Shown here piece after piece: positions 8,165 through 31,420 of a stretch of 37,671 nucleotides of DNA (its first letter is position 1; each line of letters starts with the position of its first letter). Below the pieces are notes generated by a model. It ran no database searches. It saw only the letters and a list, made by a program, of their open reading frames with translations, and was not told the origin of the DNA. Where the stretch lies: positions 1 to 37,671 of the IMG/VR virus record IMGVR_UViG_3300046813_000011; one strand, 5' to 3'. The stretch is from a virus (Duplodnaviria; Caudoviricetes). The position numbers and the translations under genes are program-made.

Positions 8165-8200
8165 AGAAGCTTGACAGGCAGCTTAAACCGTGTCAAGGGT
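8165..8200. promoter_or_regulatory. Divergent control region with CTTGACA...TGTCAAG inverted repeat
   Basis: A TTGACA -35 box on each strand, between the divergent operons; the -10 boxes are weak. Confidence 0.5.
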
Positions 8201-8232: not shown

Positions 8233-8442
8233 ATGACTATTAGAGAAAAAGAAAAAAGATTTAACATCACGTTAAGTCAGGCTGACTTGGAAATGGTTAT
8301 CCAATTAAAAGAACAGTTGAATAGAGAATTAACAATGGACCTATCAACTGCTCAAGTAATAAGACGTTTGCTTAAGCAGGCTGTGTTAAGCAGCACTTCT
8401 ATTGCTGAGGAAACGTTATCATTAAATAATAATCAACAATAA
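8233..8442 (+). CDS. Putative ribbon-helix-helix DNA-binding regulator
   Basis: KRFNITLS beta-strand followed by two helices (STAQVIRRLL); first gene of the rightward operon. Confidence 0.5.
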   Translation: MTIREKEKRFNITLSQADLEMVIQLKEQLNRELTMDLSTAQVIRRLLKQAVLSSTSIAEETLSLNNNQQ

Positions 8443-8471
8443 TTCCCACACTATTACTTCAAGGCATAACT

Positions 8472-10796
8472 ATGGAATTGGGCATGTATGAAAACATCCC
8501 TCTCGAAATGCGTCAACTGCCTAATTGGATTGTTTGGAAGCTGGAGTATCCTAATGGATTAGATAAGAAACCAACTAAGCGACCATATCAAATTACTGGC
8601 AAGCCAGCTAGCGTTACTGATCCTAATCATTGGGTAACGTTTGAGGATGCTTTTAAGCGGTCAAGCGGATACACTGGCTTAGGCTTCTGCTTCAGCAAGT
8701 CCCCATATTCAGGGATTGATTTGGATGATGCTTCCAAACTGGCTGATGGTTCTGATAATCCAAACTACAAGGATGACTTAAGCAGACAGATTAAAATTGC
8801 TACTGATTTTGATAGCTATTCAGAAACTAGTCCTTCTGGAAAAGGACTGCATATAATTGTTAAAGGCAAAGTACCAGATGGAAAGCGTACTAATTACATA
8901 GAGCTTTACCCTGAAGCACGTTACTTCACCATGACAGGTAACGTATTCAATAATAAACCAATAGCCGATAGACAAGACGCCCTTAACCAACTGTGGGCAC
9001 AAATGGGTGGAGTGATTGAAGCTCCAGCTACAGTTGATAGTCCATTAGAAATTAGTGACGATCAAATACTAGAATTGGCTCGCAAGCACAATACAAGCAC
9101 TTTCACAGATTTGGAAGCTGGTCAATGGGTTGGAAAATATCCGTCCCAATCTGAGGCTGATCAAGCTTACCTGAATATCATAGCCTATTATACCAATGAT
9201 AGACTTCAGGTTGAACGCATTTTTCGTGCTTCCAAACTCATGCGTTCCAAGGTTAACATCAATAAAGGCTATCTTAAGAATAGTATTACCAAGGCTTTCG
9301 ATCAGAAAGTACCACCATTAAATTTTGATGGATTGAAAGAGCAACTTGAACTTAAGCTTTCCACTAAACCCGCTTCGTATAATGGTAGTACGGTAGCCTT
9401 TGACGCTACAGGAGTTGGTTCAATTCCATCAGCGGGTGCCAATACACCAATAACCCTCCCTCCCGGTCTATTGGGTGAAGTGGCTCAGTTTATTTATGCT
9501 GCTGCTCCACGTCCAGTGCAAGAGGTAGCGATAGCCGCAGCTATTGGGCTGCTGAGCGGCATTACAGGCAGAGCATACAATGTATCAGGTACAGGATTAA
9601 ATCAATATGTGCTGCTCCTAGCCATGACAGGAGCAGGAAAAGAAGCATCTACTTCTGGTATTAATAAATTAATGGGATTGGTTAAAGAGCAAGTACCATC
9701 TTCCATTAATTTTGTTGGTCCTTCTGAAATTGCATCCGGCGCAGCACTATTCAAATTTCTTGGCACAACGTCACAATCTTTTATATCGTTCTTAGGTGAG
9801 TTTGGTTTACGCCTTCAGCAAATGAGCAGCCCTAATGCAAACGGTTCTGAAGTCTCTCTTAGGCGTATGCTTCTGGACTTATATAACAAGTCTGGTGCTA
9901 GTGAAATTCTCCATGCCTCTATTTATTCCGATAAGGCTAACAATACTTCTGCTGTACATTCTCCCTCGTTTAGTATTTTGGGAGATAGTACCCCTGAAAG
10001 ATTTTATGGCGCATTGAATGAGGATATGATTAGTGAAGGATTGTTGCCAAGGTTTCTGTTGATTGAATACAAAGGCAATAGGCCTGATTTGAATGATCAT
10101 CATACGCAAGCTGTTCCGTCATTCAATTTGATTAAGAAGCTAAGTGATCTGGCTGCTTATGTTGATAGTCTTAATCATGCTGCTAAGCGTTTAGTTATCA
10201 ATGTGCAGTCTACTCCTGAAGCAGCCAAGTCTTTGCGTGAATTTGATCTATCAGCTACGAATAAGATCAATTCATCTAATAAGGAAGTTATCAGACAATT
10301 GTGGAACCGTGCCCACATTAAGGTTTTGAAGTTAAGTGCTTTGCTTGCTGTTGGTCAAAACATGATTGAACCTGTTATTACTCAGGTTGATTTTGAATGG
10401 GCAGCTAGGTTAATTGAAGCTGATATTAATGCTATAACTGATAGATTTGATGCTGGCGAAATTGGTGGCAACTCGTTTGAGCTTAACCAAATGAAAGATA
10501 TGATTAGAATTATTAAGGAATATGTAGATAAAGATTTTGAATATGTATCTAAATATAAAGCTGTTGAGAAAATGCATAAGAATAAAGTAATATCTAATAC
10601 TTATTTAAACTTACGATTAACTAAAATGGCGTCATTTAGAAATGATCGCATTGGAGGAACTGGAGCTTTAAAAAGAACTATTCAGAATATGATAGATAAC
10701 GGTAGACTTATTACATTATCATCAGTTGAATTATTTAAAAAATATGAGACTACTCAAAAGGCTTATTATATTCATCCGTCTATTCTTGAGGATTAG
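8472..10796 (+). CDS. Primase-polymerase (AEP, NrS-1-like) fused to a DUF3987-type P-loop helicase
   Basis: WIVW, GIDLDD, SPSGKGLHI, SQSEAD; C-terminal TGAGKE, GLLPRFL. Confidence 0.88.
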   Translation: MELGMYENIPLEMRQLPNWIVWKLEYPNGLDKKPTKRPYQITGKPASVTDPNHWVTFEDAFKRSSGYTGLGFCFSKSPYSGIDLDDASKLADGSDNPNYKDDLSRQIKIATDFDSYSETSPSGKGLHIIVKGKVPDGKRTNYIELYPEARYFTMTGNVFNNKPIADRQDALNQLWAQMGGVIEAPATVDSPLEISDDQILELARKHNTSTFTDLEAGQWVGKYPSQSEADQAYLNIIAYYTNDRLQVERIFRASKLMRSKVNINKGYLKNSITKAFDQKVPPLNFDGLKEQLELKLSTKPASYNGSTVAFDATGVGSIPSAGANTPITLPPGLLGEVAQFIYAAAPRPVQEVAIAAAIGLLSGITGRAYNVSGTGLNQYVLLLAMTGAGKEASTSGINKLMGLVKEQVPSSINFVGPSEIASGAALFKFLGTTSQSFISFLGEFGLRLQQMSSPNANGSEVSLRRMLLDLYNKSGASEILHASIYSDKANNTSAVHSPSFSILGDSTPERFYGALNEDMISEGLLPRFLLIEYKGNRPDLNDHHTQAVPSFNLIKKLSDLAAYVDSLNHAAKRLVINVQSTPEAAKSLREFDLSATNKINSSNKEVIRQLWNRAHIKVLKLSALLAVGQNMIEPVITQVDFEWAARLIEADINAITDRFDAGEIGGNSFELNQMKDMIRIIKEYVDKDFEYVSKYKAVEKMHKNKVISNTYLNLRLTKMASFRNDRIGGTGALKRTIQNMIDNGRLITLSSVELFKKYETTQKAYYIHPSILED
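9368..9441 (+). tRNA. tRNA-Gln(UUG) cloverleaf nested inside the primase-helicase CDS
   Basis: Acceptor ACCCGCT/AGCGGGT, discriminator G, then CCA. D arm GTAT-AATGGTA-GTAC. Anticodon arm GTAGC-CTTTGAC-GCTAC. T arm GTTGG-TTCAATT-CCATC with one T:T mismatch. Confidence 0.85.
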
Positions 10797-11040
10797 TACG
10801 TTTTGTATGGAAAAATGCTTCCTTGTATGGGTGTCAAGTGCTTGAAATTGTTATACTAAAGGCGAAAAAGGATGATTTTGTATTAGTATGCTCTGAAGCT
10901 ACCCTCTCCTAACCCTGTGTGACCACCTCACACTTATACTATTATGTTAAATATCTATACTATTTATACTATTTATATTAAAGAGAGTGAGTTCAAGGGG
11001 TTAGCCGTCCAAAAAACCGCACAAATGAATACAAAGGACT
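10797..11040. other. Candidate replication origin
   Basis: Non-coding, directly after the primase-helicase; three TTGTAT repeats; AT-rich tract with three TATACTATT repeats. Confidence 0.45.
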
Positions 11041-11046
11041 AAAAAA

Positions 11047-23613: not shown

Positions 23614-23826
23614 ATGAATAATGATGATACGGTAAAGCTGGTCACTACCAAGCCTGACACTGAGCTAGCCAAGGAATTAAAGGCTGAGCTAACTAAAGCT
23701 GCTGAGCCTTGGCTAGAAGCCTGTACCAAAGCTAACAAGGCTGGCTTTGCGATACAGTCTAGTTTTGCTCCTGATTATTTAGGACGCTATGTAATTCAAC
23801 AATTACAGTTAATTAAAATATATTAG
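23614..23826 (+). CDS. Hypothetical protein
   Basis: ORF track. Confidence 0.6.
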   Translation: MNNDDTVKLVTTKPDTELAKELKAELTKAAEPWLEACTKANKAGFAIQSSFAPDYLGRYVIQQLQLIKIY

Positions 23827-23910
23827 CGGGCATGATGGAATTGGTAGACATGCAAGACTTAAAATCTTGTGCTTAATTGCGTATGGGTTCAAGTCCCTTT
23901 GCCCGCACCA
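23826..23910 (+). tRNA. tRNA-Leu(UAA)
   Basis: GCGGGCA/TGCCCGC acceptor plus ACCA; GGAATTGGTAGAC D loop; CAAGA-CTTAAAA-TCTTG anticodon arm; long variable arm; GGTTCAAGTCC. Confidence 0.95.
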
Positions 23911-26955: not shown

Positions 26956-27888
26956 ATGAAAAAAGTTCTATTTTTGATTTTGGGGTTATTGGCTTTCTTC
27001 CCACAATCAGCATCAGCCCAAAGCCAACGCAATCCTTGCGTTTATTTAACTACTTCTAATCAAAACTGTGTCCCTGTTGGATCGTCTGTTACTGGTGTGG
27101 GTAATAGCCCTATGCCTGTCGGTGGCTTGGCTAATGCTTCTGCTCCTACTTATGTAGAAGGTCAAACAGGAAGTCTTAGTTTTGATTTAACAGGTAATTT
27201 AAGAACTACTGGTGGAGGTGGTGGTAGCACTACTGTTCCCGGTTTTACTCCCGGTGGAACATTTGCTACTTTAACTGCTACTGGATCATCAGCTAGTGTA
27301 GCCCTTCCTGCTGGTGCTACTGTAGCATTTCAAAACACTGGCACAACTACTGTCAGTTGCACATTAGGAATAGGTAGTGCTACAGCTACGGCTAACCAAA
27401 TAATTGTTCAAGCTGCATCAACTGTATTCTTAGTTCCGGGTACTAATACATTTGGTGCCTGTATAGACACAACTGGATCAGCGTCTAATCTAGTGGTGCT
27501 AGCTGGTGGTTCTGGTCTAGGTACTGGATTTGGTGGAGGTGGTGGAGCAAGTACTGGTAATACATCTGTTCAAAGTGCTGTTAACGTTACTCTTACCGAT
27601 TGCTCTAGCACTATCGCTACTGGTGGTACGGCTCAGAATGCTTTTACTGCTGCTGCTACTCGCCACGGTTTTATTATAGCTAATATTGATACTGCTGAAG
27701 TTATGTGGATTAACTTCACTGGAACAGCAGTAGCTAGTGGTACAGGATCATATCCATTAGCACCAGCGTCAACAGTGACTTTCTCTGGATTAAATTCTTT
27801 TGCTTCTCCAATCGGTATGGGTATCAATACTGCTTTATCAGTAATTGCTGTCACTACTGCTCATAAATTTTCTTGCACGGTTTGGTAA
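26956..27888 (+). CDS. Signal-peptide-bearing multi-domain Gly/Thr/Ser-rich beta protein
   Basis: MKKVLFLILGLLAFFPQSASA|Q; Gly-rich linkers; paired Cys. Confidence 0.8.
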   Translation: MKKVLFLILGLLAFFPQSASAQSQRNPCVYLTTSNQNCVPVGSSVTGVGNSPMPVGGLANASAPTYVEGQTGSLSFDLTGNLRTTGGGGGSTTVPGFTPGGTFATLTATGSSASVALPAGATVAFQNTGTTTVSCTLGIGSATATANQIIVQAASTVFLVPGTNTFGACIDTTGSASNLVVLAGGSGLGTGFGGGGGASTGNTSVQSAVNVTLTDCSSTIATGGTAQNAFTAAATRHGFIIANIDTAEVMWINFTGTAVASGTGSYPLAPASTVTFSGLNSFASPIGMGINTALSVIAVTTAHKFSCTVW

Positions 27889-29040
27889 ATGAAATTATTT
27901 GCTAAGCTATTTGCTTCTTTATTAATATTAACATTAGCCATTGCTCCAGCATCAGCGCAATTTGCTGGTGGTGGTACTGGCTTTCGTATTGGTGGTGGTG
28001 CTTGGGGGCAAGGTGACGGGAGAGCATTACCGGCTAATACAGTACTACCTGTGGTTAGTGGTGTTACTGCTGTTGGCTACGTGCTGACAACTACAAACGG
28101 TACTTGGACTGCTAGCCCAACCTTTACCTATCAATGGAAAAGTAATGGTACTGCTATAGGTGGAGCTACCTCTAGTAGTTATACTCCTGTTACTGGTGAT
28201 GCTGGTACTACTATTTCAGTCACTGTCACAGGCACTAATTCTGTCGGTAGTGTAAATGCTACATCCGTCAGTGTCGGCCCAATTAATCCAGTCTCCAGTC
28301 AGGCCGCAACATTCCTTGCCAAAACTTCCGGTTTAGACAATACCCATACTAACGCCTATATATCCCTCATAAATGGGGTTGTGACTGATGGTGTTTGGAC
28401 AAAGTTAGATGTATTTCATATTTATGCAACGCAGGACAGCACTACCTCTAAGCTTAATTTAGTATCAACCAGCTATAACGGTGTATATGGTCCTACTCCA
28501 CCAACGTTTGCGGCTGATCGTGGCTATACTGGTGTAACTGCTAGTACGCTAGTCTTTATTGATACTGGTTATACGCCAACAACTTCTCCCGGTGCTCAAT
28601 TCACACTTAACTCGGCGCATCTGTCGATGTGGAGTTTAACGGCTGGTGTCGTTAGCTCGGACGGCGTTGGCGTGAACGACAATTCTGTTATTGATCCACA
28701 TTATGTAACTGGCGACGTACTTTTAGCCAGTGTCAATTGCCACTTTGGCAGCATGTCCGTTCCCAACAGCGACGGCACAGGGTTCTACATAGCTAATCGT
28801 TCGGGGGCAACTGCTCAACAACTATATAAGAATGGAGCATCTGTTGCATCTAATAGTACTGTAACTACTACCTTGGCAAATCGTAATATGCTTACGGTTG
28901 GCAACAATAATGCTGGAGCGGGCTACGGTTGGGGCGGGCAAGAGGCAGCAGTTACGATTGGTTCGTCATTATCCAGCACCGATGCTAGTAGCTTATATAA
29001 CAGACTTCGTACTTACATGACTGCTGTTGGTGTACCATAA
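27889..29040 (+). CDS. Secreted paralog 1: signal peptide, Ig-like domain, shared C-terminal beta-rich (lectin-like) domain
   Basis: APASA|Q; PTFTYQW...GAT..SY...D.G..ISVTVT Ig pattern; ends YMTAVGVP. Confidence 0.8.
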   Translation: MKLFAKLFASLLILTLAIAPASAQFAGGGTGFRIGGGAWGQGDGRALPANTVLPVVSGVTAVGYVLTTTNGTWTASPTFTYQWKSNGTAIGGATSSSYTPVTGDAGTTISVTVTGTNSVGSVNATSVSVGPINPVSSQAATFLAKTSGLDNTHTNAYISLINGVVTDGVWTKLDVFHIYATQDSTTSKLNLVSTSYNGVYGPTPPTFAADRGYTGVTASTLVFIDTGYTPTTSPGAQFTLNSAHLSMWSLTAGVVSSDGVGVNDNSVIDPHYVTGDVLLASVNCHFGSMSVPNSDGTGFYIANRSGATAQQLYKNGASVASNSTVTTTLANRNMLTVGNNNAGAGYGWGGQEAAVTIGSSLSSTDASSLYNRLRTYMTAVGVP

Positions 29041-30533
29041 TGAAAAAATTAATTGCCGGTTTATTTTTTACTTTAAGTATTTTGCTGTCTGCTCCAGCTA
29101 CATCACAATTTAGTGGCTGCTCTGCTGGTTTTTGCTCTCCGGGGGATGGTGATGTTGATGGGATACCAATAAGTAACGCTTGTACCAATGCGTCAGGAAC
29201 TACTATTACTTTTACCGCACAAGGGGTTGGCAATGCTCAGCCTAATCGCGTTTCTGTTGTAACTCTTAATTGGGATGACAGTACAGCAGCAGGAACCGCT
29301 CAATTAACTGCTGCTACTATTGGCGGCATATCAATGACTAGAGCAGTTAGGGCTGCTACTGGTGGTCAAAGTAGTAATTCTGAAATTTGGTATGCTTCTA
29401 ATCCTACTGGAACATCAGCTAATATAGTTCTGACATTTTCAACAACTGTAAATGCTGTAACCATAGAAGTTTATAGCCTTCTAGGATACAATACTGTTTC
29501 CGCGTCTACTACTGGCACTACTAGTGTAACTCAAGCTTTCAATAACAAACAATTAGCTCTTGCCGCTGGTAGCCGTCGCGTCAACGTTTCAACGTCATTG
29601 TCAAATATGACTAATGACTTTTCTTCAGCGTGTGGAGCTAATCTGTGGGGAGTTCATGCTTCTCAAAAATTAAATGGAAATAATGGCTCTCTAACTAGTG
29701 CTATTAGCCCAACTAGTAATACGCCCTTAATCGCCCTAGCAAAATGGGCTGTTGGTAGTGGTGCTAATTCTTGTAATGCTAGCGCCACATTTCTAAATCG
29801 TACATCTGGACTTGATGTTACTCATTTAAATGCTTATACTAATTTAATTTGCGGACTTGATAATGACGGTGTTCTAACTAAGTTAGATACGCTCTACACC
29901 TTTGCGACACAGGATCAAACAACCGCAAATTTAAATCTAATTTCATCCAGCTATACAATAGTTCCACAAAGTAGCCCAACTTGGACTATTGATCGTGGTT
30001 ATACGGGAGTTGCTAACTCTACATCAGTTTATCTTTATAATGGTTTCGCTCCACCTACTCCCGGTGGTGGAGCAGTTTGGACTAATAATAATGCAAGTGT
30101 TTCTATATGGAGTAATACTGCTGGGCAAACTACTGGCTGGTCAAATGGAGTAACAGGAGGACCGGGAAATGGTTCGATTTTTATCTTACCAAGGGATGGT
30201 AGTAATCAAGCTCAATTCAATTTGAATAGTATTCCCGGTACTATAGTTAGTAACACAGATGGACATGGATTATTTGCAGTTAACATGACTAGCGGCACTA
30301 CACTAGACTCGTATATAAATGGTGCTTCTGTTGGAACATTAAGTACTACGGCTGCTGCGCCTTGGGGAGGGCCTTTACCATTCCTAGCTTCTGGCAACTA
30401 TCCCGGTCAAATCCATAATGGCTGGAACGGCCAACTAAGCGCCGCATCAGCAGGAGGGGCATTAACTGCTACTGATCATGCTAACCTTTACACCAGAATG
30501 AGAGCATATATGACTGCTGTTGGTGTACCATGA
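29040..30533 (+). CDS. Secreted paralog 2: signal peptide, distinct beta domain, shared C-terminal domain
   Basis: APATS|Q; TFL.RTSGLD...FATQD...DRGYTG...YMTAVGVP. Confidence 0.8.
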   Translation: MKKLIAGLFFTLSILLSAPATSQFSGCSAGFCSPGDGDVDGIPISNACTNASGTTITFTAQGVGNAQPNRVSVVTLNWDDSTAAGTAQLTAATIGGISMTRAVRAATGGQSSNSEIWYASNPTGTSANIVLTFSTTVNAVTIEVYSLLGYNTVSASTTGTTSVTQAFNNKQLALAAGSRRVNVSTSLSNMTNDFSSACGANLWGVHASQKLNGNNGSLTSAISPTSNTPLIALAKWAVGSGANSCNASATFLNRTSGLDVTHLNAYTNLICGLDNDGVLTKLDTLYTFATQDQTTANLNLISSSYTIVPQSSPTWTIDRGYTGVANSTSVYLYNGFAPPTPGGGAVWTNNNASVSIWSNTAGQTTGWSNGVTGGPGNGSIFILPRDGSNQAQFNLNSIPGTIVSNTDGHGLFAVNMTSGTTLDSYINGASVGTLSTTAAAPWGGPLPFLASGNYPGQIHNGWNGQLSAASAGGALTATDHANLYTRMRAYMTAVGVP

Positions 30534-31420
30534 AACGTTGGCTTCTTTTATTATTTTTAATATTCTTAATCCCAACTCCAGCATCAGCACAATTTGGTGG
30601 TTGTTTGCCTGCGCTATGTGGTAAAGCTGTAGCTCCACCACCTAGCTGTATTGAAGCTGTTACGTTTCTTACTAGAACTTCTGGCTTGGATACTCCACAT
30701 AGGAATAATTATATTAATTTAATTTGTGGATTAGTTACTGATGGAGTTTGGCCTAAACTAGATTATATATATACTTTTGCAACACAGGATCAAACCACAG
30801 CGAACCTGAATTTAGTTTCTTCTGACTTTACTGTTATACCACAAGCAAGTCCAGCATGGGCGGTTGATCGTGGTTATACTGGTATTGCTAATTCTTCAAC
30901 GGTTTATCTATTTACCAATTTTGCCCCTCCGGGTTGCATAATTCATAGCCCTCTTTGTCTTGCATGGACGACAAATAACGCGCACTTCTCAGTCTGGAGT
31001 AATACAGCAGGACAAACTAACGGATGGGCAACTGGTATATCAGGAGGACCGGGAAATGGTTCTACCTTTATTCTTACGAGGGATTTGGCTGATAAAGCTC
31101 AATTTAATATAAATAGTGTCCCCGGTATAATAGTCAGTAATACAGATGGACATGGACTTTTTGAAGTTAATATGAGTGGTGGTAACACCATTGATGTTTA
31201 CATAAATGGTAGTTCTGTAGGAACGTTAGGTACTACTGCTCTTGATCCTTGGGGCGGGCCTATACCATTGCTTGCTGCTGGTATTTATGCCGGTACAATC
31301 CAGCATGGTTGGGACGGCCAAATGAGTGCTGCAACTGCCGGAGGATCGTTAACTAGTACTGATCATGCTAATCTTTATGCTAGATTACGTACTTATATGA
31401 CTGCTGTTGGAGTTCCTTAA
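30530..31420 (+). CDS. Secreted paralog 3: signal peptide plus the shared C-terminal domain only
   Basis: TPASA|Q; same motifs; ends YMTAVGVP. Confidence 0.8.
   Translation: MKRWLLLLFLIFLIPTPASAQFGGCLPALCGKAVAPPPSCIEAVTFLTRTSGLDTPHRNNYINLICGLVTDGVWPKLDYIYTFATQDQTTANLNLVSSDFTVIPQASPAWAVDRGYTGIANSSTVYLFTNFAPPGCIIHSPLCLAWTTNNAHFSVWSNTAGQTNGWATGISGGPGNGSTFILTRDLADKAQFNINSVPGIIVSNTDGHGLFEVNMSGGNTIDVYINGSSVGTLGTTALDPWGGPIPLLAAGIYAGTIQHGWDGQMSAATAGGSLTSTDHANLYARLRTYMTAVGVP

Follow-up and report, generated by a model that had tools for sequence, protein, structure and literature searches.

A tRNA-Gln gene nested in frame within the interdomain linker of a phage primase-helicase, and interchangeable nested tRNAs in its relatives

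IMG/VR virus record IMGVR_UViG_3300046813_000011 is a 37,671-base stretch of DNA (the window, meaning the whole stretch analysed here), estimated to be 67% complete and with a GC content of 39.8%. It encodes a primase-helicase whose open reading frame (ORF) runs uninterrupted through a complete tRNA-Gln(UUG) gene on the same strand, between the two domains of the protein. Nested tRNAs of this and other types recur at the same place in homologous phage genes, and comparison of their sequences demonstrates that the tRNA fold is under nucleotide-level selection in place while the gene stays coding. The element is a conserved dual-coding one, and its internal position, its occurrence in arrays, its swappable isotypes and its phage setting distinguish it from other nested tRNAs. 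The features concerned are as follows.

8472..10796, + strand: primase-helicase ORF, 774 amino acids, open through the tRNA (PHROG 3022, E 8e-208)
8472..9305, + strand: N-terminal primase-polymerase (AEP type) plus helical bundle, NrS-1 N300-like, residues 1-278 (PF22763, Foldseek)
9357..9446, + strand: predicted disordered interdomain linker, residues 296-325, confidence score (pLDDT) <50 (AlphaFold model)
9368..9441, + strand: tRNA-Gln(UUG) gene, 74 nucleotides (nt), encoded CCA; also codes primase-helicase residues 299-324 (ARAGORN, Rfam, covariation)
9400..9402, + strand: anticodon TTG, invariant in 20/20 nested Gln copies, including the silent third-codon position
9459..10796, + strand: C-terminal AAA+ helicase-type domain, from the conserved PPG motif at residue 330 (MCM-like folds; DUF3987 in homologues)
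23826..23910, + strand: free-standing tRNA-Leu(UAA), the phage's other tRNA (ARAGORN, Rfam)

A previous reading made from the letters alone (the sequence-only reading) had proposed a complete tRNA-Gln(UUG) in frame on the coding strand, and this is borne out by ARAGORN (anticodon ttg) and by Rfam model RF00005, which matches 9368-9441 over its full length (1-71) with 59 bits (gathering score 29, E 1.9e-10). The cloverleaf is the one described in that reading, with a 7-bp acceptor stem starting from A1-U72, G73 followed by CCA, and a 5-bp anticodon stem; the T stem has a single U-U mismatch. With ∼60-70 nt of flanking mRNA included on either side, folding preserves the acceptor, D and anticodon arms, and the minimum-energy structure puts the T arm in another register. 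The A1-U72 pair and the T-stem mismatch had been singled out as atypical. Both are present, but neither is peculiar to the nested state, as A1-U72 occurs in 12 of the 20 nested Gln tRNAs and in the free-standing tRNA-Gln of relative L050, and the same mismatch is found in the window's own free-standing tRNA-Leu. By its fold and its family-wide conservation, the tRNA-Gln(UUG) is confirmed as a genuine tRNA gene.

On the coding side, the ORF is open through the tRNA, which begins at the third position of codon 299, and stops interrupt both of the remaining forward frames there. Two public assemblies span 8400-11000 with zero differing letters or gaps, although both may be the source of this DNA; run X3 had no coverage over the tRNA. 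Pfam family PF22763 matches residues 226-278 of the protein, and Foldseek aligns its N-terminal part with 6a9w (NrS-1 N300-like, E 1.2e-14). In an AlphaFold model built from 52 sequences, residues 296-325 form the sole long low-confidence segment, and since this nearly coincides with the tRNA-coded residues 299-324, the tRNA is predicted to code for almost the whole linker. The proposed dual coding between the primase and helicase domains therefore stands. Cultured homologues are KL1/PA73-like primase-helicases with identities of at most 47%. Because no PolA match was found in 11 of 12 complete relatives (56-60 kb), the primase-helicase may be the main replicase of these phages.

A single-sequence scan of viral contigs returned no relative, and relatives were retrieved with an alignment query. 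The linkers of the best 120 of 2,499 homologues display two recurring peptide signatures. Loci were examined for 80 of 470 viral and 80 of 381 metagenome sequences which, with the window's own, make 161; the linker is spanned in 143 of these, representing 107 distinct genes at <90% identity. At the DNA level the peptide signatures were confirmed as tRNAs, and 33 of the 107 genes carry one to three of them in the linker, as the sequence-only reading had anticipated in suggesting that homologues might carry tRNAs of other isotypes. The carriers comprise 14 genes with CAT, 6 with TTG+CAT, 5 with CAT+TTG, 4 with TTG, 2 with TTG+CAT+TCT, 1 with TAA and 1 with an irregular GTA copy. The isotypes are thus Gln-UUG, CAU (probably Ile2, see below), Arg-UCU and Leu-UAA, with Gln and CAU in either order. 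Carriers are frequent among genes at least 55% identical to the query (13/20) and at 47-55% (15/31), and number 5 of 56 below that. A peptide rule for carriers, tuned by eye on the same data, agrees with ARAGORN in 131 of 132 loci and marks 76 of 119 protein clusters as tRNA carriers. The isotypes found nested also occur as free-standing tRNAs in L039, L050, L074 and L108.

Every nested tRNA is encoded in the sense direction and flanked by the same two protein motifs, and a CCA end is present in 44 of 48. The reading frame is open across the tRNA block in all 33 carriers; 44 of 53 distinct nested tRNAs have just one stop-free frame, which is the frame used, and 31% of frames are open in 40 free-standing tRNAs. 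The gene is not split in the loci examined, a result that does not extend to the protein database, where no search was aimed at shorter, split forms. With zero, one, two and three tRNAs the linker has a median length of 49, 56, 84 and 123 residues, respectively, so that the first cassette largely replaces the linker and later ones add to it. A scan of GTDB yielded 37 loci, of which one, L162, was scanned for tRNAs, and identified no host or prophage. L162, on a 10.5-kb contig, is the sole GTDB locus above 52% identity and has the same two nested tRNAs as L008. An apparent second nested tRNA (Thr, L216) was discarded as it falls within an upstream TTG extension of its ORF, the likely start being downstream.

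Several of the nested copies depart from the common form. The 77-nt CAU tRNA at L059:10978-11054 is of a second kind, with a Gln-like D arm and a different reading phase, and proteins P0021 and P0088 are likewise; P0021 apparently has two CAU cassettes. Tandem nested tRNAs abut or overlap in L057:10948-11096, L017:10892-11039 and L059:10906-11054 in the manner of punctuated tRNA precursors, the last A of CCA being the first base of the next tRNA, or the first tRNA lacking a full CCA. The L108 linker has only the 5′ half of a CAU cassette, and an intact free CAU tRNA (2595-2670) lies ∼730 nt downstream of the gene. The irregular copy at L010:4214-4291 is called as Tyr(GTA), lacks CCA and is probably a decaying CAU-type copy.

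Selection on the RNA was assessed by aligning, without gaps, 20 Gln copies and 29 CAT copies, the 77-nt L059 copy being left out. Stem cells are paired in 98.3% (Gln) and 99.2% (CAT) of cases, compared with 28-52% in slid controls, and two-sided changes occur in 18 of 21 (Gln) and 16 of 21 (CAT) stem pairs, a level reached in 0 of 500 shuffles. Repeated capture of different tRNAs could also generate covariation, and related genes were therefore compared pairwise. Between L002 and L083, whose proteins are 99% identical, the tRNA has changed at two bases, which together make up one compensatory pair; L043 and L082 have diverged at 45% of four-fold sites yet at only 3 of 76 tRNA bases; and no listed pair of related genes has more than two broken stem pairs. 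Silent third positions are frozen within the tRNA, at G10 and U35 of the Gln copies (20/20 each) and at A9 and U36 of the CAU copies (29/29 each). Among 98 four-fold columns in 29 carriers (mean conservation 0.53), only two exceed 85%, and both are inside the tRNA. Compensatory change in relatives, for which the sequence-only reading had proposed to look, is hence seen both across the family and between close kin.

The cassettes also appear to be mobile. The CAT copy of L121 matches the one in L008 base for base (83% amino acid identity) but is nine bases from those of L119 and L120 (97-98%), which suggests cassette exchange. In a FastTree tree of 203 proteins, built with the linker removed, with 14 duplicates and P0082 left out and with four states set by eye, one clade of 151 contains 102 carriers and 49 non-carriers, while the Leu carrier L025 stands alone among 52 others. 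Presence of a tRNA changes at least 35 times on this tree (shuffled mean 68, minimum 57); as the tree is rooted at its midpoint, these changes cannot be divided into gains and losses.

As to identity, A37 follows TTG in all 20 nested Gln tRNAs, in agreement with the anticodon criterion for bacterial tRNA-Gln (YUG with A37). For the CAU copies (n=29) the 3-70 position is G-C in 11, A-U in 7, U-A in 9, C-G in 1 and unpaired in 1. C3-G70 is usual for Met and fMet, and G3 or A3 with C70 or T70 for tRNA-Ile2(CAU) (PMC1635315). Because 28 of 29 lack C3-G70, the nested CAU tRNAs are probably Ile2. The nearest cellular CAU tRNA carries C4-G69 and C5-G68. One CAT copy is 89% and 86% like the CAT tRNA of Sphingomonas and Brevundimonas, with no match in three other named genomes, and the best matches among 301 proteobacterial genomes sit in DNA of 58-71% GC, pointing to a GC-rich alphaproteobacterium as the probable host. 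In the same 301 genomes the cellular tRNA nearest to 9368-9441 is tRNA-Gly(CCC), at 75-76% identity and mainly via the D arm, rather than a tRNA-Gln.

Nested tRNAs are carried by 8 of the 12 complete genomes, and in all eight the nested copy is the only one of its type. In G013 the sole tRNA of the genome, Leu-UAA, is nested, and the same tRNA is free-standing in ten other complete genomes. The free-standing tRNAs of the 12 genomes (Leu-TAA, Thr-TGT, Pro-TGG and Arg-TCT) all read A-ending codons, and every anticodon in these genomes is U-initial except CAU, which would belong to the same set if it is Ile2.

We consider it probable, from these comparisons, that the element is a working tRNA gene housed in a tolerant linker, that its role is plain tRNA supply, and that cutting of the mRNA is a tolerated cost. 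When a tRNA folds within a transcript, RNase P cuts its 5′ end and the 3′ end is trimmed. Host RNase P and 3′ nucleases would excise the mature tRNA from part of the primase-helicase messages and the remainder would be translated whole; the same processing has been argued for the transcript-embedded tRNA of selB/selC (PMC8124441). Since neither an internal promoter nor a restart codon is apparent, the tRNA would come from the primase-helicase message itself, and each tRNA would therefore cost one full-length mRNA, its processing leaving a 5′ fragment that lacks a stop codon and a 3′ fragment that lacks a leader. In 29 carriers no start codon precedes the PPG motif at a conserved place from which a helicase-only protein could be restarted. 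The linker would act as a landing pad on which cassettes can be acquired, stacked, exchanged and dropped cheaply, because it appears to be the sole place in the gene that tolerates any 25 residues. The nested tRNAs would read A-ending codons (CAA, AUA, AGA, UUA) for a ∼40% GC phage in a probably GC-rich host or, alternatively, substitute for tRNAs that host defences have cut. The standing explanations of phage tRNAs are codon compensation and the replacement of tRNAs cleaved by nucleases (PMC10264068), and our codon tests do not discriminate between them.

A number of observations weigh against this interpretation. G73 is an identity element for GlnRS, and the discriminator of the nested Gln copies is loose (G in 8, A in 9, U in 3; n=20). 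Their first pair is A-U in 12, U-A in 4, G-U in 3 and unpaired in 1, with G1-C72 in none; U1-A72 is the first pair read by bacterial GatCAB (PMC2811023), and weak first pairing may be what matters for tRNA-Gln recognition (PMC1635274). The host assignment draws on the likeness of one tRNA type to two of five named genomes. In flanking genes, the CAA share does not differ significantly between carriers and non-carriers (0.64 versus 0.57, p 0.14), nor does the ATA share (0.24 versus 0.21, p 0.12); GC content is slightly lower in Gln carriers (0.381 versus 0.400, p 0.006, one of eight tests). Free intergenic space beside the tRNA-Leu gene is unused, which a supply model does not explain. Finally, RtcB was found in only 1 of 31 records searched. 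Excision followed by re-ligation was also considered and rejected on this ground and because the block length is a multiple of three, restoring the frame, in 1 of 33 carriers. In support of the supply reading, the one relative with an RtcB RNA ligase (PF01139, E 2e-64; L202:10408-11745, G002) encodes it between free-standing tRNA-Leu and tRNA-Pro/Thr genes.

The sequence-only reading had put forward a switch or timer, and in its developed form ribosomes would keep the cloverleaf unfolded until slowed translation, caused by host tRNA cutting, starvation or late infection, permitted folding, cutting and release of the tRNA, whereupon primase-helicase synthesis would stop; the stop-less 5′ piece could then yield a primase-only protein of ∼299 residues. 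Cleavage would coincide exactly with the end of the NrS-1 N300-like unit, and N300 of NrS-1 is active alone, though weaker than the full-length protein (PMC7102993). The possible role as main replicase noted above also favours a switch, the same logic has been proposed for selB/selC (PMC8124441), and CAA codons in the primase domain are more numerous in Gln carriers (12.0 versus 8.9; n=17 and 30; p 0.003, one of nine tests and uncorrected for kinship). However, there is no excess of CAA in the last 60 codons upstream of the linker (p 0.74), CAU carriers have less ATA in the primase domain, one isotype, number or order can stand in for another, and tRNA presence is as changeable as described. 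Translation sensing is thus unlikely and, because 49 of 151 clade members have no tRNA at all, unsupported as the main function. A related scheme, in which a defence system cuts tRNAs, the message folds, RNase P frees replacements and the replicase pauses or turns primase-only, strikes us as similarly doubtful.

It is improbable that the tRNA is made instead as its own short transcript from a promoter inside the primase domain. This would spare the mRNA, and sigma-70-like sites do occur upstream at 9046-9075 and 9253-9281, but the number of such sites is at chance (17 versus 13.0, sd 3.6), no silent positions upstream are conserved in 29 carriers, and a cleavable tRNA would still be within the full-length messages. 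We give equally little weight to an uncharged tRNA mimic that, free or within the mRNA, would act as decoy or inhibitor of anticodon nucleases or other tRNA-binding defence proteins. The loose acceptor identity, the tRNA-Gly(CCC)-like body and the tie between nuclease defence and phage tRNAs (PMC10264068) are in its favour. Against it, the prevalent CCA ends, weak first pair and invariant anticodons are suited to charging and decoding, and annotated free-standing phage tRNA-Gln genes share the body (79%).

A neutral captured tRNA that is now a mere linker, or an assembly error hiding a stop codon, is very improbable. Decayed copies exist, such as those in L108 and L010, but the compensatory changes in place, the frozen silent sites and the excess of open frames over that in free tRNAs lead us to reject both at the level of the family, and the agreement of two assemblies with the window speaks further against the hidden stop; neither caveat of the sequence-only reading survives. 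The least probable explanation is an attachment site, where insertion into a host tRNA gene would leave the replication gene split and silent: tRNA genes often serve as integration targets and replication would be disrupted by an insertion at this position, but we reject it since a tyrosine integrase is found in 0 of 22 records (12 complete) and a serine recombinase in 1 of 18, the best match in the 301 proteobacterial genomes is 76%, short of a core identical to a host tRNA, and the stems vary freely, which is impossible for an identity core. Overall, the sequence-only interpretation is partly supported.

The nearest precedent is selC (tRNA-Sec), which is nested in the selB ORF of Alphaproteobacteria and was called the first tRNA nested in a bacterial ORF (Mukai 2021, PMC8124441); the word phage is absent from that paper. 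In both cases a whole sense-strand tRNA lies in a translated ORF and is conserved but not essential, with remnants occurring, and the non-stop mRNA proposed to result from selC processing would be expected here too (PMC8124441). The selC tRNA, however, codes for a C-terminal extension of the protein that is its partner, is of one isotype and usually has a length that is a multiple of three. The phage tRNAs are elongators unrelated to the protein that lie between two conserved domains in arrays of one to three, with at least four isotypes, variable order and rarely a frame-preserving length. The mitochondrial tRNA-Lys in cox1 of Armadillidium is likewise fully within a coding region, in direct orientation and with alternative transcript fates (PMC8124441), but belongs to an organelle genome of fixed content, whereas the cassettes here are mobile, optional and full-length. 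The tRNA-Gln of Pakpunavirus (79% identical) has the same body, an encoded CCA and, in common with the nested tRNAs, anticodons for A-ending codons; such ordinary phage tRNA genes, in contrast, are intergenic. The protein resembles NrS-1 and KL1/PA73-like proteins in having a primase-polymerase, helical bundle, flexible linker and C-terminal AAA+ domain, and differs in that its C-terminal domain matches MCM-like folds and DUF3987 and in that linkers of cultured homologues have no annotated tRNA (none under the primase match among the 115 rows listed). A full-text literature search for nested or in-frame tRNAs in phage genes, with most subscription journals and supplements outside its reach, returned no relevant paper. 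An analogy with the CI RNA of phage P4 was also considered, and the literature search on it returned a single, unrelated item.

Canonical tRNA genes can thus persist for long periods well inside a core replication gene of a phage, in swappable arrays of up to three and with both codes selected. Phage tRNA inventories may be undercounted, because annotation rules that forbid overlap of tRNA and coding sequence would drop either the tRNA or the gene. The family provides a compact natural system for studying how RNase P processing competes with translation for a single transcript, and for asking if the supply of phage tRNAs can be linked to the state of translation. It makes the idea proposed for selB/selC testable with ordinary tRNAs, the tRNA-free sister alleles being natural controls. 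If defence-triggered release did operate, anti-defence tRNA supply would be coupled to replication by feedback without a regulatory protein, through cassettes swapped among phages.

The window also encodes a P22-like portal and a terminase, and a ParB-like gene is present in it and in relative G002. A search for repeats around the primase-helicase gene found nothing notable. At ∼8170-8197, between a leftward recombination module and the rightward primase unit, are two inverted TTGACA hexamers, possibly overlapping divergent promoters. In the AT-rich gap 3′ of the primase gene (10797-11046), which may be an origin or promoter, a 10-mer recurs and there is an extended -10-like site near 10850. 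The stretch 26956-31420, between the small and large terminase genes, has four ORFs for putative virion proteins, three of them ending in a similar C-terminal motif. In Pseudomonas phage PSV3 (OP712479.1, NC_069755.1), the homologous primase-helicase match is in 3-4 pieces across several annotated ORFs.

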